DNA of 64,000 nt from Candidatus Haiyanarchaeum thermophilum (lineage in GTDB: Archaea; Nanobdellota; Nanobdellia; JAPDLS01; Haiyanarchaeaceae): positions 92,288 to 156,287 of the forward strand of contig JAPDLS010000001.1 in assembly GCA_025920425.1 (NCBI GenBank). Reading direction: 5' to 3'. Within the stretch, counting starts at the first letter, position 1. Every line of letters starts with the position of its first letter. Under the pieces are notes generated by a model. That model saw only the letters and a program-made list of their open reading frames with translations. It was not told the origin of the DNA and ran no database searches. Of this stretch, positions 1,024-61,683 are shown in pieces. A program made the position numbers and the translations under genes.

Positions 1024-1105
1024 CGCCGGGGCTGGGATTCGAACCCAGGAGGGCAAAGCCCACACGCTCTCAAGGCGTGCCCCTTAACCGCTTGGGTACC
1101 CCGGC
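1024..1105 (-). tRNA. tRNA-Ser (anticodon UGA), 82 nt, long variable arm
   Basis: Hand-folded cloverleaf: acceptor GCCGGGG/CCCCGGC, 3-bp D stem, anticodon stem CACGC/GCGTG with loop CTTGAGA, variable stem-loop GGGC-TTT-GCCC, T arm CTGGG-TTCGAAT-CCCAG, discriminator G. Confidence 0.85.
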
Positions 1106-1137: not shown

Positions 1138-2136
1138 CTACTTCCTCTTTTTCCAAACCCTAGGATAAATATCTCTTGGCATTATTACCCTTTCCAGTTT
1201 TGCCACAATTCCTTTCTTAGCCTCGATCAAGCTTTCCCAATCCATCTGAGCTCTAGCTATGGCTACTAATTCTCCCTTCAAGGTCATAATAGCCAATATA
1301 TCATTGATCTCCCAGCCTGACTCAAACTTGACAACTCCAGGAACCATGAGGGGAGCTCCATAAGTGAGTGCCCCCACACTCGTATCACTCACATAAACTT
1401 TTGGTAAGTGGGCTACTGAGAATTCGCATGGGAGAATTAACTCAGCAATTTCTTTCTCATTTCCACTTTCCTTGAAAGAAAGGTAAGCCGCAGCTAATTT
1501 ATGAAGTGTAATAAGCTTTGTATTCTCATTGAATGCTCCAACCTTAGTCCTTCTCAGCTGTACCATATGTGCTCCCACTCCCAATTTTACACCTATGTCA
1601 TGGCATAATTTTCGAATATAGGTGCCTGATTCACATCCGATTTCTAAAAGTACATCTTTCCTCTCCACTTCTAAGATATTGATATAGTAGATCTCCCTTT
1701 CCCTCTCCACTCTTTTTGCTTTGGCCCTTACAGGAGGAATCTGCTTGATCTTGCCAACAAAACCTAGGATGGCTTCCCTCAACTTCTCAAATGGGACTTG
1801 AGAATGAAGATGCATGAGACATACATATTCCTTTCCAGCAAGCAGTAATGGTTTGATCAATTTCGTAGAATTTTGCAAGGCTACTGGTAATACTCCAGTG
1901 ACCTTCAAATCTAAAATTCCAGGATGTCCTGTTTTATCTAAATTAAGGATCCTCTTCACAAAATATGATACATTATGTGAACTTTGACCACTCGGCTTAT
2001 CTATATTCACGAATCCAAACTTCAACATTTCTGTAAGGTTTCTTTCTTCAGGAGGCTTCCCAAAAGAAGGATTCGATTCTTCCTCACGCTTTTCAATTAC
2101 CTCTCTCTTGACTTTCTCAAATGGAAGCAATCCCAT
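1138..2136 (-). CDS. cbf5: tRNA/rRNA pseudouridine synthase Cbf5 (H/ACA RNP catalytic subunit), apparently intron-free
   Basis: TruB-type motif GHPGILD, C-terminal PUA-like region, and conserved position downstream of L14e and cmk. Confidence 0.85.
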   Translation of the reverse strand: MGLLPFEKVKREVIEKREEESNPSFGKPPEERNLTEMLKFGFVNIDKPSGQSSHNVSYFVKRILNLDKTGHPGILDLKVTGVLPVALQNSTKLIKPLLLAGKEYVCLMHLHSQVPFEKLREAILGFVGKIKQIPPVRAKAKRVEREREIYYINILEVERKDVLLEIGCESGTYIRKLCHDIGVKLGVGAHMVQLRRTKVGAFNENTKLITLHKLAAAYLSFKESGNEKEIAELILPCEFSVAHLPKVYVSDTSVGALTYGAPLMVPGVVKFESGWEINDILAIMTLKGELVAIARAQMDWESLIEAKKGIVAKLERVIMPRDIYPRVWKKRK

Positions 2137-3326: not shown

Positions 3327-4730
3327 TCAACCAGCCAAGAATTTCCTGATTGACGGATGGATTTCCTCTAGATGCATCCTCGTGATCTGCTCGTAGAGGG
3401 AATAAATGATCATCACCGAAAGCAGTATTCCTGTTCCCCTAGAAAGGGCTCCTAGGACATCGGCTATTGTAGCTAAGAGTCCTACTACGAAACCTCCCAA
3501 AATGGCTAGAGAGTAGATGTACTTAGAAAGTATTTGTTCTATAATTGGCTTAGAACTCCTAAATCCTGGAATGAGCAACCCACTCGAAATTATCTGGTCA
3601 GCTATGCTGCTTGGATCTTGCCCTCCAATTTCCACCCAGAGGTAAGAGAAGAACATAGACCCTATCATCATGAGAGATCCGTAGACAAGAATTGAGATAA
3701 GATGATCCCATTTGGGATTTGTTAACATCTCTGTGAGGTGAGGAACATTGAGATATTTCACTAAGCCACTAGCAGGGACTTCCCTCCTCTGCCCCCCAAT
3801 TTCCACCACTTCATAAGTTCCCAGGATCGGGAGATTTGCATGGTATAGCATTACTCCCCACACTTCAAGACTTGCTATGAGAGAAGCTACGAGGATCACA
3901 GGGATGTTACTTGTATAGAGTAGGTTAAGTGGCCATTTGATCGAGAATCCACCAACCCTCCCAAAGCTTAGCGGAATTTCTACCCTTACACTCTGGAAAT
4001 ATGTGGAAAGGAAGAAAATGAGGAGAGTAGCACACAAAGCCACAATTCCGAATGTAAACACATCTGCTGCTTGGGGAGATGATGAAAGGAATGAATAGAT
4101 AATATTTGGAATTATTCCTATTGGTCCTGATTGAGTAGTTATTGGAGAAAAGGCCGAGACGAAGATTTCCCTAGCTACTCCTGCCACGATAAATAGAGAA
4201 ATTCCAGACCCTATCCCCCACTTGCTGGCTACTTCATCTAGAAACATGAGGAGAAATCCACCGACGACCAACTGAGAGATGAGGAGAAATTGGTTCCAGA
4301 GAGTAGGTTGGGCTGGCATGAGAGCTCCACTTAACACATAAATAGAATTCTCAAAGAGGATAAAGAACACTGTAAATACTGTTTGAAATTCTTGGTACCT
4401 CTTCCTTCCTTCCTTACTTTTTAAGTCCACCTTAATTACATCTGCTCCTACCAGAAGTTGGAGGAAGATGCTGCCAGTAACTATCGGTCCTATTCCCAAA
4501 CTCAGGATGGAACCAAAGCTTGCAGCCAGCAATACAGCTAGAGCTTCAAATCGAGCCACTTGCTCGGGATGAAGCCCGTACAATGGAGTCATGGAGAGTA
4601 AATAGAAGAGGAAGAGCACTATTAAAGTCCATTTCAACTTCTCGTTCAAACTCAATCTTACCTTGGGCCCATCTATTTCCGGGACCAGTGAGGCTATCCT
4701 ACTTATTACATCCAATGATCTCCCCTCCAA
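3327..4730 (-). CDS. secY: preprotein translocase subunit SecY
   Basis: 467-aa polytopic membrane protein with SecY-like N-terminus, positioned immediately after L15. Confidence 0.9.
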   Translation of the reverse strand: MEGRSLDVISRIASLVPEIDGPKVRLSLNEKLKWTLIVLFLFYLLSMTPLYGLHPEQVARFEALAVLLAASFGSILSLGIGPIVTGSIFLQLLVGADVIKVDLKSKEGRKRYQEFQTVFTVFFILFENSIYVLSGALMPAQPTLWNQFLLISQLVVGGFLLMFLDEVASKWGIGSGISLFIVAGVAREIFVSAFSPITTQSGPIGIIPNIIYSFLSSSPQAADVFTFGIVALCATLLIFFLSTYFQSVRVEIPLSFGRVGGFSIKWPLNLLYTSNIPVILVASLIASLEVWGVMLYHANLPILGTYEVVEIGGQRREVPASGLVKYLNVPHLTEMLTNPKWDHLISILVYGSLMMIGSMFFSYLWVEIGGQDPSSIADQIISSGLLIPGFRSSKPIIEQILSKYIYSLAILGGFVVGLLATIADVLGALSRGTGILLSVMIIYSLYEQITRMHLEEIHPSIRKFLAG

Positions 4731-16321: not shown

Positions 16322-17764
16322 TTAACCTTTGACCACACCCAGTGGTACTAGCCTAGCCACCAATTTCCCAATTCCAGCCCTATCACTTACAATGGCCACC
16401 TCATCTATATCTTTATATGCCCCTGGGGCCTCTTCTGCCACGATCTCCCAAGAAGCAGCCCTCACCAATATTCCCTTCCTTTCCAATTCTTGAGCAATTT
16501 CCTTCCCCCTGAACTTCTTTATTGCAGCATTCCTACTCATTTCCCTTCCAGCACCATGAGCAGTGGAATAAAAAGTTTTCCTTGCCTCAGGATTTCCAAC
16601 TAGAACATAACTTGCTGTGCCCATACAACCCGGAATTAGCACTGGTTGACCGGTTCTCCTATATTTTTGAGGCAAATCCTCACTTCCTGGGGGAAAGGCT
16701 CTAGTGGCTCCCTTCCTGTGCACGAATACTTTAACTTTCTCACCATTTACTTCATGATCTTCAATTTTCGCTATGTTATGTGCCACATCGTAGACTACTT
16801 GCAACCCCAAGGCATCCGGTTCCTTTTCAAATACTTGTTTGAAGCTTTCCCTTGTCCAATGCAAAATCATCTGCCTATTGCACCAAGCATAATTAGCTGC
16901 CGCACACATTGCAGCGAAGTAATTTTCAGCTATTTCACTTTTGGAAGGAGCATAAACCAGCTCTCTGTCAGGAAGCTTAGCTATCACTTCATGATATTTC
17001 CTCTCCATCTCTCTCAAGTAATCAGAACATACTTGATGCCCTAAGCCCCTCGAGCCTGTATGGATCATTATCATCACTTGTCCCTCTTCCTCTATTCCAA
17101 ATACTTTAGCTACTTCCCTATTGTAGATTTTGTCCACCTTTTGAACTTCTAGGAAATGATTTCCAGCCCCCAAGCTTCCAAGCTGGGGTAAACCTCTACT
17201 CTTAGCGGTGCTAGATACCTTTGATGGATCTGCTTGAGACATCCCTCCATTTTCCTCAAGATGCTCGAGATCCTCCTTCCAACCAAATCCATGCTCCACA
17301 GCCCACTTAGCTCCGAGCTGGAGCACTTGATCTAGTTCAGTGGAAGATACTCTTATCTTCCCACCCTTCCCCACACCAGATGGTATATTCCTAAAGATGA
17401 TCTCAAGCAATTCCCTAAGCCTAGGGCGGACATCTTCTTCTCTTAAATTACTTCTCACTAGGCGGACTCCACAGTTGATATCATACCCTATTCCTCCTGG
17501 GCTAATACAACCTTCCTCATAATCTATAGCTGCTACCCCTCCAATGGGAAAGCCATAGCCCTCATGACCGTCAGGTAAAGTAATGGAGTATTTGTAGATT
17601 CCAGGCAAACATGCAACTCCAGCAGCCTGAATCAAAGTCCTATCCTGCTTCATTTTCTCCAGAAGCTTAGGACTAGCTATGATGAGGGCTGGTACTCTCA
17701 TTCCCGGAATACTCCCTTTAGGAATTTCCCACTCTATGTCGCTTATTTTCTTGAGCTCAACCAT
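16322..17764 (-). CDS. rtcB: RNA-splicing ligase RtcB (3'-phosphate/5'-hydroxyl ligase), no intein
   Basis: Conserved RtcB blocks GYDINCGVR, GAGNHFLEV, HTGSRGLG, STAHGAGR in a 480-aa protein. Confidence 0.9.
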   Translation of the reverse strand: MVELKKISDIEWEIPKGSIPGMRVPALIIASPKLLEKMKQDRTLIQAAGVACLPGIYKYSITLPDGHEGYGFPIGGVAAIDYEEGCISPGGIGYDINCGVRLVRSNLREEDVRPRLRELLEIIFRNIPSGVGKGGKIRVSSTELDQVLQLGAKWAVEHGFGWKEDLEHLEENGGMSQADPSKVSSTAKSRGLPQLGSLGAGNHFLEVQKVDKIYNREVAKVFGIEEEGQVMIMIHTGSRGLGHQVCSDYLREMERKYHEVIAKLPDRELVYAPSKSEIAENYFAAMCAAANYAWCNRQMILHWTRESFKQVFEKEPDALGLQVVYDVAHNIAKIEDHEVNGEKVKVFVHRKGATRAFPPGSEDLPQKYRRTGQPVLIPGCMGTASYVLVGNPEARKTFYSTAHGAGREMSRNAAIKKFRGKEIAQELERKGILVRAASWEIVAEEAPGAYKDIDEVAIVSDRAGIGKLVARLVPLGVVKG

Positions 17765-17796: not shown

Positions 17797-18249
17797 TTAG
17801 ATATCTAACACTACATGAACGTAGAATTTTCCATCCTTTTTGCCAACTCTCATGCCATGATAGGTCACAGCTTTAACTACAGCGCGTCCTCTATGTTTCC
17901 TTGGATCGAACTCTTCTCCGAGCAGCACAGCAGAGACCTTAAGCTTATTTCCCTCCTTCCATATTTTAGATACCTTCACTTCAGAGAAGAATATATTTTC
18001 CGAATCATTGATGATCAGAATTTTTTCGAGGAAATCGTACAGAAGACTTTCATTATCTTCCCCTTCTGCTACGATTTCCCTCCTCACCTTCTTCTCTACT
18101 TCATGCAGATCAATCATTACGCTTTGCATAGCTATAGCTGCCCTCTCAAAGGCCTGCTCGAGAGAGTTTCCAAGAGCTTCGAATTCGACATCTGCTGTGT
18201 GTTCCAGAAATTTTATGTACTTAGACTCCATTTTTATATACGAAGACAC
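17797..18249 (-). CDS. archease (RtcB activator)
   Basis: N-terminal FLEHTADVEF and C-terminal KAVTYHGMRV archease signatures; directly upstream of rtcB on the same strand. Confidence 0.8.
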   Translation of the reverse strand: MSSYIKMESKYIKFLEHTADVEFEALGNSLEQAFERAAIAMQSVMIDLHEVEKKVRREIVAEGEDNESLLYDFLEKILIINDSENIFFSEVKVSKIWKEGNKLKVSAVLLGEEFDPRKHRGRAVVKAVTYHGMRVGKKDGKFYVHVVLDI

Positions 18250-18273: not shown

Positions 18274-19134
18274 ATGGTATGGATTCAGAGGTTTGATCCA
18301 TGGAGGAGTACCTTATGTACCTGTCCTTTCAAATACTCACTTAATATCTATACAGGATGTGCTCATGCATGCATCTATTGTTATATTACTTCTTATATAA
18401 GAGATGGATTCAAACCGAGGCCGAAGAGGGGATTGATAGGCGAATTGGAAAGGGAACTTCAGCGCTTTCATGCTAGAAGAAAAGTGGTAAGCATTTCCAA
18501 TAGCTCAGACCCTTATCAACCTATAGAAAAGAAACTAGAGCTAACTCGAAAGTGCTTGGAGCTTTTCAAGCGATTCGGATGGAAAATACTAATCGTTACG
18601 AAGAGCAATTTGATAACAAGAGACCTAGATCTCTTAAAGGAAGATTGTGTAGTGAGTGTTACAATCACTACCCTGGATTCAAAGCTGGCTCACATACTTG
18701 AGCCCAATGCTCCATCACCTTCCCTTAGAATAGATGCTATAAAATTGCTTAAACTCTACCATATCCCCGTATGTGTAAGAATAGATCCCCTAATTCCCTT
18801 CATCAATGATGATTGGGAAAAGCTTGAGAAATTAGTTAAGATTCTAGCAAAGCTAAAAGTGGACCATGTGATTTCTTCTACCTACAAAGCAAGAGGAGAC
18901 AGCCTAGCTAGATTAAGCCTGAACTTTCCTGAGAGATACATTAAATTATTGAAGCTCTACTTGATGGGTGAAAGAATCTCCAATTATTATTATCTCCCTA
19001 GGGATCTGAGATATAGACTAATGAGTAGGCTTAAGCAGCTCTGTGAGGAATATGGTCTAAGCTTTGCCTCCTGCAGAGAAGGCTTTAGGGAGCTCAACGA
19101 TAATATATGTGACGGGAGCTTTCTCCTCTCATAG
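18274..19134 (+). CDS. radical SAM protein, spore-photoproduct-lyase-like family (COG1533)
   Basis: CxxxCxxC cluster inside SLNIYTGCAHACIYCY, the characteristic N-terminal signature of this family. Confidence 0.65.
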   Translation: MVWIQRFDPWRSTLCTCPFKYSLNIYTGCAHACIYCYITSYIRDGFKPRPKRGLIGELERELQRFHARRKVVSISNSSDPYQPIEKKLELTRKCLELFKRFGWKILIVTKSNLITRDLDLLKEDCVVSVTITTLDSKLAHILEPNAPSPSLRIDAIKLLKLYHIPVCVRIDPLIPFINDDWEKLEKLVKILAKLKVDHVISSTYKARGDSLARLSLNFPERYIKLLKLYLMGERISNYYYLPRDLRYRLMSRLKQLCEEYGLSFASCREGFRELNDNICDGSFLLS

Positions 19135-19699
19135 ATTTTTTATCCAAAAAATTGTGAACTATAGTAATGCATTGACTGGAGAAGTAGGGTAGTGGGCCCA
19201 ACGAGATAGTATCTTTACAAAATCGCTTTGCAATTTTCTTCTCCCTCCTCGGGAGTCCTAGATGGTCTCCCAAGATGAATACAGGATCTTCCCCAATTTC
19301 CACATCATCTATCAATTTTCCCCTTTCATCCAACAAATAAATGTTTCTTCCACCATGCTCCTCAACTACTTCCTTAAAACCCTTCTTCTCTATATAGATT
19401 CCTGGAAATGCTAAGACCTTTCTTCCCTTCTTATATTTCCAGAGAACATATCTGAGGAGATCTCCTACATCCTTCTTTGAAATCGGCATTTCCTCATGGC
19501 TTATGAACTCAATATGTTTTGGAGGATCGGGGGGGCCGTTGAGGATGATATGAAGATTTACATCCATTCGCATCGCGTTCGAGATGAAAAAGGCGGCGAT
19601 GATGCTATGGCAGACTATGTCCAGCCTTCCTGCCTCCATTAGGCTCTTGAAATTTCCACTTGTCCTGCCATGTTCTGAGAAAAGGATAAATTCTCTCAT
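19094..19699 (-). CDS. trmY: tRNA (pseudouridine54-N1)-methyltransferase TrmY (SPOUT, DUF358)
   Basis: Strong resemblance to the TrmY core (GRLDIVCHSIIAAFFISNAMRMDVNLHIILNGPPDPP). Confidence 0.7.
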   Translation of the reverse strand: MREFILFSEHGRTSGNFKSLMEAGRLDIVCHSIIAAFFISNAMRMDVNLHIILNGPPDPPKHIEFISHEEMPISKKDVGDLLRYVLWKYKKGRKVLAFPGIYIEKKGFKEVVEEHGGRNIYLLDERGKLIDDVEIGEDPVFILGDHLGLPRREKKIAKRFCKDTISLGPLPYFSSQCITIVHNFLDKKSMRGESSRHIYYR

Positions 19700-23506: not shown

Positions 23507-23588
23507 GCCGGGGTACCCAAGCGGTTAAGGGGCACGCCTGGAGAGCGTGTGGGCTTTGCCCTCCTGGGTTCGAATCCCAGCCCCGGCG
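23507..23588 (+). tRNA. tRNA-Ser (anticodon GGA), 82 nt
   Basis: Same cloverleaf as the gene at 1024..1105; anticodon loop CTGGAGA; differs from the UGA copy only at position 34. Confidence 0.85.
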
Positions 23589-29986: not shown

Positions 29987-30724
29987 TTACCTTAGGAAGA
30001 TCCTGATATTTTCTTGAAAGACTTTCTCATTATCTCCAATAGCTCTTTCTACACTTAGTATGGAGGCTTGATAAAAATCATCATCACACTGAAGTCCGAA
30101 ATCGCTTTCAAATACTACCATATTTTCCAGTCCATCCTCCATAGCTTTAGCTACCTTCTCATTTGGTATATAAAAGAGGAAGTTTGAAGGGGAAGTTCCT
30201 AAAAGGAGGTTTCCTTCCAATCTTCTAAGTTGTCTAGCATTAATTTCAGTAAGATAATTGTAGAGAGCATCTACTCCATGCGCTACATAGATTAAAGCAT
30301 CATATTCCCTAATGTATCGGGAGAGTATCTCTAGGAACTCCTTAGTGAAATAATGACCATGAATTTGGATTTTTTTGAAGTTTTGAGAAAGAGCATCTTC
30401 GATCAAGTTTACCTTTTTCATATAGGGATGTATATCATCAGCCCCTATCTTAACGAACTGAAATTTGGAGATTTTCTTCAATTTTCCTATGTTTTCTCTA
30501 GGCGTGAGATAAATGCCAGGATAAATATATGGTGCTTTTTCCAGTATAGCCTTAACTAATGGTAAGTTTGGAGGAATGAAAATGCCTACGATCTTATCGA
30601 TGTTATACCTTTTTCTGATTCCTCCCACTCGTTTTAGGTCCTCATCTAAACTAATATCCATACTCCACCCGGGAACTAATCTCGGAGCTGGGTAATGGAA
30701 ATGAAAGTGCCCATCGTTGATCAT
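29987..30724 (-). CDS. metal-dependent hydrolase, amidohydrolase/TIM-barrel family
   Basis: N-terminal DGHFHF metal-binding motif and FESDF near the C-terminus. Confidence 0.45.
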   Translation of the reverse strand: MINDGHFHFHYPAPRLVPGWSMDISLDEDLKRVGGIRKRYNIDKIVGIFIPPNLPLVKAILEKAPYIYPGIYLTPRENIGKLKKISKFQFVKIGADDIHPYMKKVNLIEDALSQNFKKIQIHGHYFTKEFLEILSRYIREYDALIYVAHGVDALYNYLTEINARQLRRLEGNLLLGTSPSNFLFYIPNEKVAKAMEDGLENMVVFESDFGLQCDDDFYQASILSVERAIGDNEKVFQENIRIFLR

Positions 30725-32099: not shown

Positions 32100-34301
32100 T
32101 TACTCCTCAATAATCCCCTTTCTCTTTCTAATCTGTTTAATGATTTCTTCTTCTAGGGAAGTGGGGAGTTTCTCAAATCTAGAGTCAACTAGAAACCATG
32201 CCCCCCTTCCTTCAGTAGTGCTCCTCAGCTCATCTGTGAATCCAAACATTTCAGCTACAGGCAGGTCGCAGATGAGAATACCTCTTCCATCTTCCTCTTT
32301 TACCTCTAGTAGTTGTCCCCTTCTACTCTGGATGATCTTTATTACTTTCCCACTGTACTCGGGAGGAAGATCTATCCTGATCCTCTGGATAGGCTCCATT
32401 AGGATCGGTTTGGCTTGGAGGATAGCATCCCTAATGGCACTCTTCACAGCAGGAATTACCTGAGCAGGTCCCCTATGAATTGAATCCTCATGGAGTACAC
32501 AATGGACTAGTTTAACTTTGATTCCGAAACACTTTTCATGTGCGAGGGGGCCCCTCTTCATAGCATCCTCGAAAGCAGTCAAACACATTTCCATCACTTC
32601 ACCTATATGCACTACTCCTCTAGTTTCATCGATGAATATATTTCTTTCATAGATGTGCTTTACCCTTTTAGCTTCTTCCCTATCCATTCCAGCTTCAACC
32701 AATTTGCTCCAAAGTTCCTCAGTTTTTCGCTTGATTTTTCCTTCAGGTATATCTCCCCGTACGATGGCTTCATAAACCCCTTTTTCCAGAGGTTCAACCA
32801 CTATATAGAACTTGTTATGTTTATTTGGGGATTTACCCTCTACCACAGGGCTTTTATCGGTAACGCTTTCTCTATATACCACTATGGGGTTAGACTTGGT
32901 TATGGGAATTCCTCGCTCCACACTTATTTTATATTCGACTATTTCTAGGTGAAGTTCTCCTAGCCCAGAGACAAGGTTTTCTCCTGTCTCTGGATTAATC
33001 TCTACCTTGATAGTAGGATCTTCTTTTGCAATGTCATTGAGGGCTTCGATGAGCTTAGGGAGATCCCCTGGTCTTGTGGGTTCAATGGCCTTAGTTACTA
33101 CTGGCTCAAAGATATGCTTGATCTCCTCAAATGGGGTTACAGGTTCTCTGCTCACAGTTTCTCCAGCATTTATTCCCTTCAGCCCGATCAATCCACATAT
33201 GTTTCCAGCATATACTTCATCGATAGGGTAACGATGAGCACCTCTCCATACTAATATCTGTTGAACTTTCTGCACGCTCTTGGCTGAGTTAAGATATACT
33301 TCCTCGCCCCGTGTCAACTTCCCAGCGAAGAGACGTCCTACAGCAATTTCTCCAGCTTGGGGATCGACGATAATCTTAGACACGCAGAAAATTGGTTTGA
33401 AGTTATGGTCACATGCTAGCAGAGCTTTTCCCACATCTGAATCTAGATCTCCACTCCAGATCCTTGGAATCCTGTACTTTTGAGCTTCGACAGGACTTGG
33501 TAGATGCTTTATTATCATTTCTAGCAAAATTTTGTGGAGAGGAGCTTTCTTCGCAAATTCCTCAATCTTCCCCTCTCTATACGCCTGGATTACATCCTTA
33601 AAGGAGAGGTTAGTTTTTTGCATGTAAGGATAACTTAGCGCCCATTTTTCCAGAGCAGAACCAAAGGCTACTGTACCTTCATTTACCCTTAACTGCCATT
33701 TCTCTTTAAATGGGGAGGGGGCGAGGGCAGCTATTAGTTCGTTGACATTCATTATTACCTTGATGAACCTCTCCTGAATTTTCTCAGGAGGTAATTTTAG
33801 TTCGTTGATTAATCTATCTACTTTATTCAAAAAGAGCACAGGTTTTACCCCTTCTTTAAGAGATTGCCTCAACACCGTCTCGGTTTGAGGCATTACTCCT
33901 TCCACAGCATCGATGACGAGGAGAGCACCATCTATAATCCTAACAGCCCTAGTTACATGCCCCCCAAAATCTACATGTCCTGGAGTATCTACTAAGTTTA
34001 TTAAATATTCTTCCCCATCTATCTCAAAAACAATATTGGCATCCGCACTCTTAATCGTCATCTGCCTCTCTTGCTCGATCTTTACATAGTCCAATGCTAA
34101 CTTTTTTCCAGCTACTTCCCAAGAGAGCATGCCAGCTCCAGCTAAAAGGGAGTCGCACGTAGTGGTCTCGATGGGTTCTAAACTTGAAGTTTAGAACTTT
34201 CCATGATCTACGTGCGCGATAGTTCCTATGTTTCTAATCCTCTCCTTTTCCTTCATCAATCTGTTTATCTTTTGAATGAGCTCCTCCTCCTTTGTTCCCA
34301 T
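32100..34301 (-). CDS. fusA: translation elongation factor 2 (aEF-2) in two exons, 34301..34199 and 34168..32100, separated by a 30-nt bulge-helix-bulge intron
   Basis: Exon 1 encodes [35 protein letters not shown]; exon 2 continues [12 protein letters not shown]...DTPGHVDF; between them lie 30 nt with an in-frame TAA that fold as a BHB motif; joined product is 723 aa. Confidence 0.85.
34169..34198 (-). other. predicted archaeal BHB intron inside the EF-2 P-loop coding region
   Basis: Transcript-sense 5'-AGUUCUAAACUUCAAGUUUAGAACCCAUCG-3'; central helix AUGG/CCAU, 3-nt bulges AAA and CGA, 10-bp inner helix with UCA loop; cutting after the 2nd nt of each bulge restores the frame. Confidence 0.75.
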
Positions 34302-34333
34302 AGCACATCACCTCTTCAAGAAAGGTGAAAGCA

Positions 34334-34343
34334 TTTAAAATTT
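34334..34343 (-). promoter_or_regulatory. putative TATA-like element upstream of fusA, followed by a GAGGTGA Shine-Dalgarno-like sequence before the ATG
   Basis: AT-rich AAAATTTTAAAT about 38 nt upstream of the start codon in the S7-fusA intergenic region; inference only. Confidence 0.25.
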
Positions 34344-34354
34344 TTTGGTTTTTC

Positions 34355-43022: not shown

Positions 43023-43278
43023 CTATCACCACCCTATAATATTTAGTTTCTCCAGCGGTAGGGGAACTACGAGTAATTTCTATCACATCTCCAGGCTTAG
43101 CCCCAAGCTTCCGTACGACAGGATCCGTGATTAGAATCCTCGGGAGATCTGCGAGTTTGGCATTATATTTGGTTAGCAACTCTCTCTTCTCCTCCTCGCT
43201 AATGATCCTATGTCTAGGTACGAGTCTGTGGGTAAAGATGTCAAATTCTTCTTTATCTCTCTCCTCTATCATCTTCAT
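43015..43278 (-). CDS. rpoH: DNA-directed RNA polymerase subunit H (Rpb5-like)
   Basis: About 85-aa Rpb5-like sequence ([10 protein letters not shown]...[12 protein letters not shown]); the ORF-track N-terminus runs into tRNA-Lys, so the true start is MKM at 43278 or MIE at 43272. Confidence 0.8.
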
Positions 43279-43400
43279 GGGCCGTGCGGGATTCGAACCC
43301 GCGACCACTGGGTCTCTTCATCCTCAGGTTCAGAGCTTTTATCTTGGGATAAAAGCCCAGTGCTCTTGGTAAGCTTTCTACCAGGCTGAGCTAACGGCCC
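43278..43400 (-). tRNA. tRNA-Lys (anticodon UUU) with two predicted introns: about 11-13 nt in the D-loop and about 36 nt at canonical position 37/38
   Basis: Removing both insertions gives a standard 73-nt tRNA-Lys (acceptor GGGCCGT, D stem GCTC/GAGC, anticodon stem CTGGG/CCCAG with loop CTTTTAA); canonical intron has a CUUU/GAAG central helix. Confidence 0.7.
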
Positions 43401-45684: not shown

Positions 45685-45804
45685 TCCTGCGGGCCGGATT
45701 TGAACCGGCGATCTTCCGGTAACCGCTGAGTTTTGGTCATCGATACCAATACAGTTACTCCCAACTCTACAGCCGGACGCGTTACCGGGCTACGCTACCG
45801 CAGG
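45685..45804 (-). tRNA. tRNA-Tyr (anticodon GUA) with a canonical-position intron of about 45 nt
   Basis: C1:G72 acceptor pair, D stem GCGT/ACGC, anticodon stem TCCGG/CCGGA with loop CTGTAGA after removing the insertion, T arm GCCGG-TTCAAAT-CCGGC, discriminator A. Confidence 0.8.
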
Positions 45805-50083: not shown

Positions 50084-50089
50084 TTTTCA

Positions 50090-50177
50090 TGGACCGGCCG
50101 GGACTCGAACCCGGAGCCTTCTCCACTTCCGAGTACCCTCTGCGAAGGAGACGCTCTACCAGTTGAGCTACCGGCCC
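50090..50177 (-). tRNA. tRNA-Ala (anticodon CGC) with a 15-nt intron at position 37/38
   Basis: G3:U70 wobble pair in the acceptor stem, anticodon stem TCTCC/GGAGA, intron with UUCG/CGGA central helix, T arm CCGGG-TTCGAGT-CCCGG. Confidence 0.8.
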
Positions 50178-50197
50178 ACTAATGAAATTAATCTTCA

Positions 50198-58354: not shown

Positions 58355-58453
58355 TGGGCCCGGTGGGATTTGAACCCACGACCTACGGTTCTCTTAGATG
58401 TGCGGAACTCGGTCTTATAAGACCGTCGCTCCACCAGGCTAAGCTACGGGCCC
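58355..58453 (-). tRNA. tRNA-Ile with predicted anticodon UAU and a 25-nt intron at position 37/38
   Basis: Acceptor GGGCCCG/CGGGCCC, discriminator A, anticodon stem ACGGT/ACCGT, 5-nt variable loop; intron has a perfect CUUA/UAAG central helix with 3-nt bulges, leaving loop CUUAUAA. Confidence 0.7.
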
Positions 58454-58487: not shown

Positions 58488-59465
58488 TTACTCAAGTCTA
58501 CATTCATAGATCGTCTTATCCTCCCTAATCCTCAAAAATACTGGAGCCCTCAATTTCTTGTCCTTTGTAATTTCCATGCATTTCACCTCACATATATATC
58601 TTGGCTCAACGAAGACCATCTTTTCAGCCATGTTTGGTTCCTCTTCGAAGATCTCAAATGGGTTTTTATCGATTGTAATTGGTTCGAGCATTTCTTTGAG
58701 CTTAGCTAGATCACTCTCACTAAAACCGGTTCCTACTCTCCCAACATATCTCAGCTTTCCCTCATCCAAACATCCGAGCACTAGGGCTCCTAAGTATTTC
58801 TCCCGAATCCCTTCTCCTCTCGTAAAGCCACAGATCACACAGTCCACAGTCTTCGTAGCCTTTATCTTAAGCCAGTACTTAGATCTCTCTCCAATCAGAT
58901 AGGGACTGTCTATCTTCTTAGCCATTATTCCCTCGAAACCTTTCTTTGCCACTTCTTCAAAAAATTTGATCCCACCTCCTATTATGAATCTCGTAAGCTT
59001 CACCCTTTCTCCTTCAGTTACACATTCTCCTAAAATTCTCTTCCTCTCGATAAGTGGGAACTCAAGGAGAGATTTTCCATCTTTATAGAGAATATCAAAT
59101 ATGAAGAGGGTAGCCGGGCTCAATTTGGAGAGAAGTTCTATCCTTAGCTCATCACTTGTGTGTTCCCTCTCCTGCAATTTCCAAAAGTTTGGCTTCTCCC
59201 CATCCAGCACTACGATTTCTCCATCTAGAATTCCTTTATTTCCTAGGAAGGCATTAGGAAGCTCTTTTAATATTTCTGGATATCTCTTCTCAAAGAAGAG
59301 GCCTCTCCTATTGAGGAACTTAACTCTTTCCTTCTCTTTATCTATGTATACGATGGTTCTAGTTCCATCGTATTTTATTTCAAATAAATACTGCTCAGAA
59401 TCAAAAGGCCTAGCTGAAAATGCTAGCATTGGCTTTATCTTCTGATCGAAAAGATCTCCTTCCAT
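58488..59465 (-). CDS. ATP-dependent DNA ligase, small LigD/LigC-like ligase domain
   Basis: Motif I KxDGxR (EIKYDGTR) in a protein of only 325 aa; immediately downstream of the Ku gene. Confidence 0.75.
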   Translation of the reverse strand: MEGDLFDQKIKPMLAFSARPFDSEQYLFEIKYDGTRTIVYIDKEKERVKFLNRRGLFFEKRYPEILKELPNAFLGNKGILDGEIVVLDGEKPNFWKLQEREHTSDELRIELLSKLSPATLFIFDILYKDGKSLLEFPLIERKRILGECVTEGERVKLTRFIIGGGIKFFEEVAKKGFEGIMAKKIDSPYLIGERSKYWLKIKATKTVDCVICGFTRGEGIREKYLGALVLGCLDEGKLRYVGRVGTGFSESDLAKLKEMLEPITIDKNPFEIFEEEPNMAEKMVFVEPRYICEVKCMEITKDKKLRAPVFLRIREDKTIYECRLE

Positions 59466-60260
59466 TTAGCTGATCTGAGATACTTTCTTTTTCTTCTTTT
59501 CCAACAACTCCAAACTGCTTTTGAGAGCATCTACCAATGATTCAGTTACGATCTCTTCCTTCTCCTCCTTGGAAATAAATTCTCTCCCTTCCACCTTAGC
59601 TTTGATAAGTTCCTTGACCTTTTCACTAAATTCATCTTTAAACTTAGTGATATCGAATTCACTACTCAACTTCTGAATGAGCATTTGAGCTAACTTCAGT
59701 TCTTCCTCGCTTACCACTACCAACTGCTTCATTTCAGGAATCTCCTCCAGAGGCTTTACTTCAGAAAGATAATGAAGAATGTGCATAAGCAAACCATCCT
59801 TGTATGGCCTCAAGGCTACGAGATATTCCTTATTTCGCATGACTACCTTACCTATTGCCACTTTATTCGTAAGTCTTAGGGCCTGTACGAATAAGCTAAA
59901 TGCTTTGGCTCCTAGTTCCTGGGGCACCAAATAGTAGCTCTTCTCAAAGTAGATGGGATCTATTTGGGCTGGATCCACAAATTGTTTGATTTCTATTGTC
60001 TTTGTGGTCTTCAATTTAATCTTTTCAAGATCACTTCTTTCCACTACTACATACTGATCTTTGCTTATCTTGTACCCTTTCTTTATTTCATCCCACGAGA
60101 TCTCCCTATTGCAAACCGGGCACCAGCGTTTATGCTCTATAGGATGACCCTCCCTACAGAGATTCTTAAATTTTATGCCTGTACTCTCAGTAGCTACATA
60201 TACTTTAACCGGAATGTTGATCAGGGAGAAGGAAATACTCCCAGCCCAAATAGCTTTCAT
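59466..60260 (-). CDS. ku: Ku protein, bacterial-type (non-homologous end joining)
   Basis: Bacterial-Ku N-terminal signature MKAIWAGSISFSLINIPVKVYVA and core DPIYFEKSYYLVP. Confidence 0.8.
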   Translation of the reverse strand: MKAIWAGSISFSLINIPVKVYVATESTGIKFKNLCREGHPIEHKRWCPVCNREISWDEIKKGYKISKDQYVVVERSDLEKIKLKTTKTIEIKQFVDPAQIDPIYFEKSYYLVPQELGAKAFSLFVQALRLTNKVAIGKVVMRNKEYLVALRPYKDGLLMHILHYLSEVKPLEEIPEMKQLVVVSEEELKLAQMLIQKLSSEFDITKFKDEFSEKVKELIKAKVEGREFISKEEKEEIVTESLVDALKSSLELLEKKKKKVSQIS

Positions 60261-60609: not shown

Positions 60610-61524
60610 TTAAATCTTTATTCGCTTGAAGAGAGATGCTACTAAGATGGGAAGATTAATAGTAGCATCCCCGTAAACTACAGCCTGCTTCGCCCCCTCT
60701 TTTACCTTTCCCCAAGAAATTCCCTCCCTAGAGTGAGCTCCACTCAGGCTACCATCCCATTCAACCGCTGTACTAAGATATACCACATAGTCTAATCCTC
60801 CCTTAAACTGATTCCACCAGATCACATGATGTTTGGAAATTCCTCCCCCTATTACGAGGGCTCCGCTAAGCTTAGCTTTCCATACCAGCTCACTAAGCAG
60901 ATCTTCGTCCTTAAATTGATCTATTCTAAGTTTCTTCCCAAATTCCCAGATATGGTATCCTACAGCCCCATCTGTAAGACCAGGGATTATCATAGGTATC
61001 CTATTCCTGAAACACCAGTAAAGGATCGAGTCCTCATTTCCTATAAACTCTCCTAGTTTCCAGCAGAGCTCATAGGTGCTAAGCTCCTTATCAACCGTTA
61101 ATCCTTTGATGAACTCTCTCATCTTTTCCTCAATAATTATTCCATAGCTCTCATTTGGAATGAAGACGTTTCCCAATCTGCAAATTCCCTTCCTCCTCAA
61201 TTCAGAGTCATCAGTAAAAAAGCTCCCGTGAAAATACTCCTTGAAACTTCTAGCTAGATCATGATCAAGAGTACCACATGTGGTAATTATCACATCGAAC
61301 AATTTTCTCCTCACGAGTTCTCTTATTATTCCCCTACACCCAGTAGCTATTATGCATGCTGGAAAAGATAGAAATTTCAAGCAATCCTTTTGCTTTATCA
61401 TCTCTTCCAAAATATCTACAGCTTCTCCAAGTTCCTTTGCCATAAATCCTCCGGAAGCCTTCAGCTCCCTCAATAACTCGTCCACATCATGTTTTATCTC
61501 AATATCCTTCACTGGAATTTGCAT
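60610..61524 (-). CDS. dys: deoxyhypusine synthase
   Basis: Conserved blocks DVIITTCG, IPGLTDGAVG, GGGISKHH and DGSLSGA. Confidence 0.8.
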   Translation of the reverse strand: MQIPVKDIEIKHDVDELLRELKASGGFMAKELGEAVDILEEMIKQKDCLKFLSFPACIIATGCRGIIRELVRRKLFDVIITTCGTLDHDLARSFKEYFHGSFFTDDSELRRKGICRLGNVFIPNESYGIIIEEKMREFIKGLTVDKELSTYELCWKLGEFIGNEDSILYWCFRNRIPMIIPGLTDGAVGYHIWEFGKKLRIDQFKDEDLLSELVWKAKLSGALVIGGGISKHHVIWWNQFKGGLDYVVYLSTAVEWDGSLSGAHSREGISWGKVKEGAKQAVVYGDATINLPILVASLFKRIKI

Positions 61525-61601: not shown

Positions 61602-61683
61602 GCCGGGGTACCCAAGCGGTTAAGGGGCACGCCTGCTAAGCGTGTGGGCTTTGCCCTCCTGGGTTCGAATCCCAGCCCCGGCG
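61602..61683 (+). tRNA. tRNA-Ser (anticodon GCU), 82 nt
   Basis: Same body as the other two tRNA-Ser genes; anticodon loop CTGCTAA; differs only at positions 35-37. Confidence 0.85.

Follow-up and report, generated by a model that had tools for sequence, protein, structure and literature searches.

Introduction

The cbf5 pre-mRNA introns of Archaea were reportedly described by Watanabe in 2002 and by Yoshinari in 2006, with later work by Yokobori in 2009. Those of Desulfurococcales and Sulfolobales are the only archaeal mRNA introns established by experiment, all others having been merely predicted as of 2009 (PMC2738675), and EndA papers of 2018 and 2025 still cite the cbf5 work alone. A literature search for bulge-helix-bulge (BHB) introns in mRNAs other than cbf5, including EF-2 or DPANN cases, found no report; a Caldiarchaeum paper considered as a precedent for an EF-2 intron was rejected, as it uses EF-2 merely as a marker. 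The present analysis concerns a 64,000-nucleotide (nt) stretch of the genome of Candidatus Haiyanarchaeum thermophilum (hereafter the window), in which the gene for the translation factor EF-2 is interrupted within its P-loop by a 30-nt insert. These 30 nt are very likely an archaeal BHB intron (hBHBh') of the EF-2 pre-mRNA, a case built on the DNA sequence and on the predicted fold of its transcript. The host, a member of the order Jingweiarchaeales from Tengchong hot springs, is described as a streamlined and probably symbiotic hyperthermophile (PMC10134863).

The putative EF-2 intron resembles the cbf5 intron in kind, not by descent. Both interrupt a catalytic-core codon between its first and second bases (that of the catalytic Asp in Cbf5, PMC2738675; that of the P-loop Lys in EF-2), both lie in a coding frame whose orthologues in sister lineages have no intron, and in both cases gene callers misannotate the gene. 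The host gene is EF-2, however, and the host lineage is DPANN Nanobdellota rather than TACK; the EF-2 motif is a strict hBHBh', whereas mostly relaxed motifs are reported for cbf5, and it carries a long exon-exon clamp helix. The two introns are not regarded as homologous, because the host gene is another one, the window's own Cbf5 gene is intact (1138..2136, minus strand; a single uninterrupted 332-aa frame with all domains), the host belongs to a DPANN lineage and the motif is a strict one. Archaeal tRNA and rRNA BHB introns share the 3-4-3 geometry and the predicted cut positions, and canonical examples occur in the window's tRNA-Ile and tRNA-Ala genes. Unlike these, the EF-2 insert sits in an mRNA, has codons, rather than an anticodon stem, as its outer helix, and contains an in-frame stop codon. 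A further parallel is HAC1/XBP1 splicing, in which a short mRNA intron is excised under the guidance of RNA structure, independently of the spliceosome, and joined by a tRNA ligase (general knowledge; PMC13149111); there too, joining is required for a functional reading frame. HAC1/XBP1 splicing relies on IRE1 acting on twin stem-loops, with ligation by RtcB or Trl1, in contrast to the predicted action of EndA on a BHB, and it is a regulated stress switch.

The interrupted EF-2 gene

The EF-2 gene belongs to a conserved RpoA-L7Ae-NusA-S12-S7-EF2-EF1a-S10 cluster; the gene and all its features below are on the minus strand. An earlier note made without database searches (the sequence-only reading) had observed that the longest EF-2 open reading frame (ORF) looks truncated, beginning past the G1 motif, and that an upstream ATG in the same frame encodes the missing N-terminus. 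Sequence and ORF list bear out both points. An internal Met past the G1 motif is the start of the longest ORF (32100..34130, 676 aa), while a 36-aa ORF runs from the in-frame ATG at 34301 to a TAA (34193..34191). This in-frame UAA belongs to the 30-nt insert 34198..34169, which reads AGTTCTAAACTTCAAGTTTAGAACCCATCG (AGUUCUAAACUUCAAGUUUAGAACCCAUCG) and lies inside the EF-2 P-loop codons. In-silico removal of 34198..34169 produces a 2172-nt ORF encoding a 723-aa EF-2 with the P-loop AHVDHGKTTTCD restored. The proposed join of GGAA to AGACC, after the second nucleotide of each bulge, thus stands with the P-loop intact; the label 'crenarchaeal-type' that accompanied it is unsupported, the organism being a DPANN archaeon.

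Under this arrangement, exon 1 (34199..34301, ATG at 34301..34299) comprises codons 1-34 and the first base of Lys35, the putative intron occupies 34169..34198, as delimited by its fold and by the empty sites in relatives, and exon 2 (32100..34168) extends from the last two Lys35 bases to the stop codon, the 676-aa ORF being the portion of exon 2 downstream of the internal Met. The BHB-defined junction is GGA A/AG ACC (the slash marking the join), which leaves one base of the Lys35 codon in exon 1 and two in exon 2. AG occurs at both borders of the insert, so that the same mRNA results from two further 30-nt registers, one of them at the exact boundary between the Lys and Thr codons (the K/T junction). 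Upstream of exon 1, the interval 34308..34340 contains a TATA-like element, TTTTAAAT (34340..34333), and a Shine-Dalgarno-like GAGGTGA (34314..34308) located 6 nt ahead of the ATG. Within the spacer 34302..34354, both elements are kept between the two Haiyanarchaeum lineages that carry the insert (see below), and GGTGA is also kept in relatives at 85% identity; they are putative expression signals.

Relatives without the insert and independent assemblies

The top match of the spliced protein is the truncated ORF itself (P0001), followed by full-length EF-2 proteins at 85% (P0002) and 72% identity (P0003, Ca. Jingweiarchaeum tengchongense); among the matches listed, EF-2 is full-length in 119 of 119 other clusters. 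DNA alignment of the 5' end reveals that the relatives at 85% (L002-L004) and 72% (L005, Ca. Jingweiarchaeum) lack exactly these 30 nt and nothing else. An alignment of fusA from related genomes, proposed by the sequence-only reading as a check on whether the insertion is shared, therefore gives a divided answer: the insertion is shared with one diverged lineage (L013) and absent from L002-L005. By parsimony, this distribution in sequence indicates that the intron was gained after the split from the 85% lineage.

The insert is also found well beyond the assembly in which it was noticed. The exact 676-aa product is recorded on 16 contigs and the exact 36-aa product on 17, and the insert is identical in five further assemblies of the organism. 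Agreement of the region is complete, base for base, in Logan SRR21619494 (L001), in the 375-kb JGI contig Ga0209394_1000002 (L008), in JGI 3300000866 JzSedJan11 (L010) and in the NCBI metagenome-assembled genome (MAG) GCA_025920525.1 (L012). A metagenome scan, with a validated pattern, for the P-loop flanks separated by any insert of 14-44 nt matched only this organism's 375-kb contig (L008). An assembly or sequencing artefact, which the sequence-only reading had named as a possible undoing of its proposal, might draw on the fact that the insert is a perfect hairpin, and on nothing further; given the four identical copies and the diverged one in Logan SRR32459162 (L013), its probability is negligible.

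Two observations concern the records themselves. The 2011 JGI contig L010 has a G-to-T change at the equivalent of window position 34076, which turns an exon-2 GAG codon into TAG; in this 1.8-kb contig of low coverage a read error is the probable cause, a defective allele being possible. In three NCBI MAGs of the species, the accessions of S12, S7 and EF-1a are consecutive (MCW1300941/40/39, MCW1303083/84/85 and MCW1303748/49/50), and P0001 has no NCBI source. Because the S7 and EF-1a numbers follow one another directly, EF-2 seems to have no protein record in these MAGs, presumably having been called a pseudogene.

Predicted fold of the insert

Folding of 34225..34150 returns a strict hBHBh' structure (helix-bulge-helix-bulge-helix) as both the minimum free energy (MFE) and the centroid structure, and the motif is retained in both when the context is widened to 301 nt. 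The fold that the sequence-only reading had described is reproduced in every part: a central helix H of 4 bp (AUGG 34204..34201, CCAU 34174..34171), 3-nt bulges on opposite strands (AAA 34200..34198, CGA 34170..34168), and, on the intron side, a 10-bp inner helix h' (34197..34188 with 34184..34175) closed by a UCA loop (34187..34185). On the exon side, helix h consists of two pairs, U-A and C-G (UC 34206..34205, GA 34167..34166). The resulting topology, h-H-B-h'...h'-H-B-h, is that of pre-tRNA position 37/38, and the structure-defined cut sites coincide with the homology-defined 30-nt gap in L002-L005. The predicted energy of -27.5 kcal/mol compares with -11.6 +/- 2.6 for shuffled sequences (z = -6.0), none of the 200 shuffles being as stable.

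The predicted structure as a whole, described in dot-bracket form, spans 34154..34216 and includes an element absent from the earlier note. Beyond the 2-bp h lies an A/CCA internal loop (CCA 34165..34163), followed by a perfect 9-bp exon-exon helix, CGCACGUAG/CUACGUGCG, in which codons 29-32 (CGCACGUAG, 34216..34208) pair with codons 37-40 (CUACGUGCG, 34162..34154). The residues A-H-V-D and T-T-C-D fix six of the nine pairs through the first and second positions of their codons, which makes self-complementarity intrinsic to the site. The other three pairs fall on wobble positions and are Watson-Crick in all three cases in the intron-bearing lineages, in one of three in L002-L004 and in none of three in L005 (two G.U); the chance of all three being Watson-Crick is 1/64 under uniform codon choice (own calculation). 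The Lys codon AAG likewise pairs with the C of His33 in helix h, where L002-L004 have AAA instead.

This outer helix is predicted to supply most of the stability of the structure. The BHB core alone amounts to -11.2 kcal/mol at 37 °C and +0.4 at 75 °C, whereas core plus exon helix reaches -27.5 at 37 °C, -6.8 at 75 °C and -1.4 at 85 °C, nearest-neighbour extrapolation to 65-85 °C being rough. Because the core is at +0.4 and the clamped structure at -6.8 kcal/mol at 75 °C, the exon clamp is, in the model, what holds the motif together at hot-spring temperature.

Geometry alone has little weight. A permissive scan of the whole window finds ~1,200 BHB arrangements per strand versus ~1,000 in shuffled sequence; bare BHB geometry is common, and what gives the EF-2 site its significance is therefore its energy z-score, the agreement of cut sites with homology, and conservation. 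Under a second filter, by which excision must join two long and otherwise broken frames, strong helices remain in the window at the EF-2 site and at two others only. Both of the latter were rejected: 4246..4207 is inside an intact 467-aa SecY-like ORF and folds with z = +1.3, and 60662..60634 is inside a complete deoxyhypusine synthase gene. The scan and filter thus find no second mRNA BHB intron in the 64-kb window. A dispersed palindromic repeat or miniature inverted-repeat transposable element was also considered and rejected, the insert core being single-copy in the 64 kb and absent from 100,044 GTDB species genomes. The insert region has no Rfam match at gathering score, whether to a ribozyme or to a group I or group II intron. 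A permissive Rfam scan gave one sub-threshold match, the C/D-box sR-tMet at 34038..34066 (minus strand), which lies outside the insert, within EF-2 exon 2 (21 bits versus a gathering score of 50, E = 0.2), and is regarded as chance.

A second insert-bearing lineage and selection on the frame

The diverged copy is on contig L013 (Logan SRR32459162), which was reached via its S12 protein. Its EF-2 shares 97% protein identity with that of the window and has the same architecture of 36 aa plus 676 aa; exon 2 is 84% identical at the DNA level. Over the spliced frame, the two lineages differ by dS = 1.59 and dN = 0.0146 (omega = 0.009), and exon 1 alone has omega = 0.06. Measured against the 85% relative, exon 1 has pN/pS = 0.095, equal to exon 2. 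Because both lineages carry the insert, all of this divergence accrued with the insert in place. An omega of 0.009 in an interrupted gene therefore implies that the gene is functional and must still be expressed as one protein.

This evidence bears directly on the possibility of a broken gene, that is, a pseudogene or a gene split into a 36-aa peptide and a P-loop-less 676-aa protein, with EF-2 supplied by another copy or by a host. Such a state would fit a reduced, probably symbiotic DPANN archaeon (PMC10134863) in which gene callers report two ORFs and the NCBI MAGs seem, from their consecutive accessions, to lack an EF-2 protein record. It is nevertheless highly improbable: purifying selection of this strength has acted over a dS of ~1.6 while both lineages carried the insert, constraint on exon 1 matches that on exon 2, the split inside GxxxxGK/T leaves neither piece with a P-loop, and the gene keeps its place in the conserved S12-S7-EF2-EF1a operon. 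Among the matches listed, no other EF-2 has this organism's pattern of contigs and sources.

The insert itself is strongly conserved. It differs between the lineages at 2 of 30 positions, versus 142 of 275 four-fold sites (Fisher p = 1e-6; binomial 2e-7). In L013 the middle loop base changes UCA to UUA, and the loop-closing pair changes from U-A to U.G with pairing kept; both changes are structure-neutral in the predicted fold. No change falls in helix H, h, either bulge, the exon helix or the UAA, and L013 has the same predicted fold and energy. The 12 exon codons within the structure contain no synonymous change (P ~1e-3 against the gene-wide rate of 44%), which is suggestive. Synonymous divergence is low over a longer interval too, affecting 5 of 36 codons among the first 40 EF-2 codons (34181..34301, minus strand) versus ~45% elsewhere. 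Because this low synonymous change is accompanied by conserved upstream elements, constraint may extend beyond the BHB itself.

Conservation of this kind leaves little room for readthrough or recoding of the UAA, which would give an EF-2 with a 10-residue insertion in the P-loop. The insert is in frame and a multiple of three, as that would require. However, the product would read HGKF at this point, its GK[ST] motif destroyed, and UAA is the commonest stop codon of the window (30 of 67 ORFs). Moreover, a difference of 2/30 (one of them an AGU to GGU codon change) against 52% at four-fold sites places the constraint on the nucleotide sequence as a whole and not on codons. Readthrough is therefore extremely improbable.

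Programmed translational bypass, in which ribosomes take off at the Lys35 AAG or the Gly34 GGA, skip the 30-nt hairpin and land before ACC, would account equally well for insert conservation and for purifying selection on the frame. T4 gene 60 and the mitochondrial 'byp' elements are examples of translational bypass, and the likeness of the EF-2 insert to T4 gene 60 and the yeast mitochondrial byps is real: a short hairpin insert directly after the putative take-off codon, a stop codon two codons downstream, and an intact protein. Yet bypass elements need matched take-off and landing codons, a need that the EF-2 site does not satisfy (AAG versus GAG, and no GGN ahead of ACC), and they need no BHB geometry, whereas the 3-4-3 arrangement, the CCAU complementary to exon AUGG and the exon-exon helix are all present here and invariant. 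BHB splicing is also active in this genome, as the RtcB/archease genes and tRNA introns indicate, and bypass elements are not known from Archaea. Bypass is thus a very unlikely account of the locus.

Exon-ligation genes and tRNA introns in the window

The window encodes a complete exon-ligation module 16 kb from the interrupted EF-2 gene. The RNA ligase RtcB (16322..17764, minus strand, 480 aa; PF01139, E = 2e-175, full-length match) is adjoined by archease (17797..18249, minus strand, 150 aa; PF01951, E = 2e-42), a known activator of RtcB. On the same strand as archease, beyond a radical-SAM gene on the opposite strand (18274..19134), lies a putative SAM-dependent RNA methyltransferase gene (19094..19699).

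ARAGORN, run with its intron option, identifies eight tRNA genes in the window, four of which bear introns (15, 25, 39 and 46 nt); all four are on the minus strand. tRNA-Ile(UAU) (58355..58453) has a 25-nt canonical hBHBh' intron at 37/38 and tRNA-Ala(CGC) (50089..50178) a 15-nt canonical BHB intron at the same position, while tRNA-Tyr(GUA) (45685..45804) has one of 46 nt. The fourth, a 123-nt tRNA-like gene (43278..43400) called as Leu(GAG), has its 39-nt intron at an unusual position. No sequence similarity is seen between the EF-2 insert and these tRNA introns.

Two of these genes merit separate remark. The tRNA-like gene at 43278..43400 is missed by Rfam and by default ARAGORN, and its anticodon arm could, by eye, read CTGGG-CTTTTAT. 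The gene at 50089..50178 is called Arg(TCG) without intron handling and becomes Ala(CGC) after removal of the 15-nt intron, with the G3:U70 alanine identity pair.

Proposed mechanism

In the transcript, exon codons 29-34 would pair with codons 36-40 and clamp the 4-bp helix (exon AUGG, intron CCAU) between the two 3-nt bulges. Archaeal EndA cuts after the second nucleotide of each bulge. It would thus cleave between 34199 and 34198 and between 34169 and 34168, generating ends with a 2',3'-cyclic phosphate and a 5'-OH; RtcB, aided by archease, would then ligate the exons, giving the spliced junction GTAGATCATGGAAAGACCACTACGTGC. The 30-mer would probably be circularised by RtcB, giving the circular-intron junction GAACCCATCGAGTTCTAAAC. 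Spliced mRNA would encode the normal 723-aa EF-2 with its P-loop intact; unspliced RNA would be read only to the intron UAA, after 36 codons, yielding a 36-aa peptide, and the UAA would in this way block synthesis of a P-loop-damaged EF-2. If the insert is a BHB intron, EF-2 expression would depend on the tRNA-splicing endonuclease and RtcB. Conservation of the intron needs no benefit, because mutations that spoil the BHB in an essential gene would be lethal and precise deletion would be rare; a lineage-specific gain could persist for these reasons.

The testable predictions of a BHB intron all held, namely empty sites in relatives, recurrence in independent assemblies, a second lineage, RtcB/archease and tRNA introns, and they support it. 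Several points weigh on the other side. Nearest-neighbour parameters make the predicted structure marginal at 85 °C (-1.4 kcal/mol, from -6.8 at 75 °C), and the host is described as a hyperthermophile with a predicted optimal growth temperature above 80 °C (PMC10134863). A register-shifted alternative fold is isoenergetic at 65-75 °C, and pair probabilities in helix H are ~0.5 even at 37 °C. Just two different intron sequences are available, hence no double-sided covariation, and the lack of synonymous change in the 12 structured codons becomes weakly significant (~0.06) when set against the slow first 40 codons. Coupled translation would carry ribosomes into the splice structure. Finally, EndA (PF01974, PF02778) was not found in a Pfam scan of 40 non-ribosomal ORFs within the window, itself only a portion of the genome; the presence of introns in four tRNA genes implies that the host has the enzyme.

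That null result is also what could favour excision by a nuclease/ligase pathway other than EndA and RtcB, the BHB-like fold then being incidental. Such a pathway is very improbable, as the fold fits an EndA substrate in every defining dimension, the canonical cuts give the exact junction, the region matches nothing among Rfam families, ribozymes and group I/II introns, and 30 nt is too short for self-splicing.

Inteins at the same junction

The position of the insert within EF-2 is shared by elements of another kind. Four DPANN EF-2 homologues of ~1,200 aa (P0062, P0077, P0101 and P0102) carry an intein and LAGLIDADG domains, inserted at AHIDHGK/C...HN/TTFSD (slashes marking the borders), equivalent to window 34199..34166. 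The 30-nt insert is 0-2 nt from the K/T codon boundary that forms the intein junction, so that both kinds of element interrupt the same gene at the same place. The inteins differ in that they are ~500 aa long, contain a LAGLIDADG homing endonuclease and are removed at the protein level, whereas the 30-nt insert holds a stop codon and needs removal at the RNA level. This coincidence in sequence suggests that the K/T junction is a recurrent insertion hot-spot.

A more speculative reading, which we consider unlikely, treats the K/T junction as a homing site shared in DPANN archaea by two classes of selfish element, LAGLIDADG inteins in some lineages and the BHB intron in Haiyanarchaeum, and at the same time as a splicing checkpoint on EF-2. 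The 30-mer could then be what remains, after loss of its ORF, of an archaeal intron that was once mobile and encoded an endonuclease; alternatively, it could have been kept because it destroys the target of an intein homing endonuclease. In the same scheme, the EndA and RtcB/archease gate on EF-2 could tie elongation to tRNA-splicing capacity, in a manner resembling HAC1/XBP1.

Other features of the window

A 245-aa ORF without a Pfam match (29987..30724, minus strand) lies between EF-1a and S10; because S10 directly follows EF-1a in the 85% and 72% relatives, it is a lineage-specific insertion in a conserved operon. Three tRNA-Ser genes (1024..1105, minus strand; 23507..23588 and 61602..61683, plus strand) are identical except for the anticodon (tga, gga, gct) and neighbouring bases. 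At 58488..60260 (minus strand), Ku (264 aa) adjoins an ATP-dependent DNA ligase (325 aa), a pair resembling non-homologous end joining in a very small DPANN genome.

Significance

If the 30 nt are a BHB intron, archaeal mRNA splicing would be broader in both gene and lineage than cbf5 in one clade, the extent known since 2002. The finding would extend a known mechanism to a new gene and a new lineage, rather than describe a new mechanism, and specialists would be surprised that a streamlined DPANN hyperthermophile relies on tRNA-type splicing to complete the P-loop of an essential translation GTPase. The intron would provide a compact 76-nt substrate on which EndA and RtcB could be tested for mRNA splicing, genes for the ligase and its activator being close at hand. 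For genome analysis, gene calling here breaks a universal marker into a 36-aa ORF and a truncated one, which affects completeness estimates and phylogenomics. The locus would also be informative about intron gain, as the exon in which the element landed was already self-complementary through its AHVD...TTCD codons, and related lineages have inteins at the same junction.

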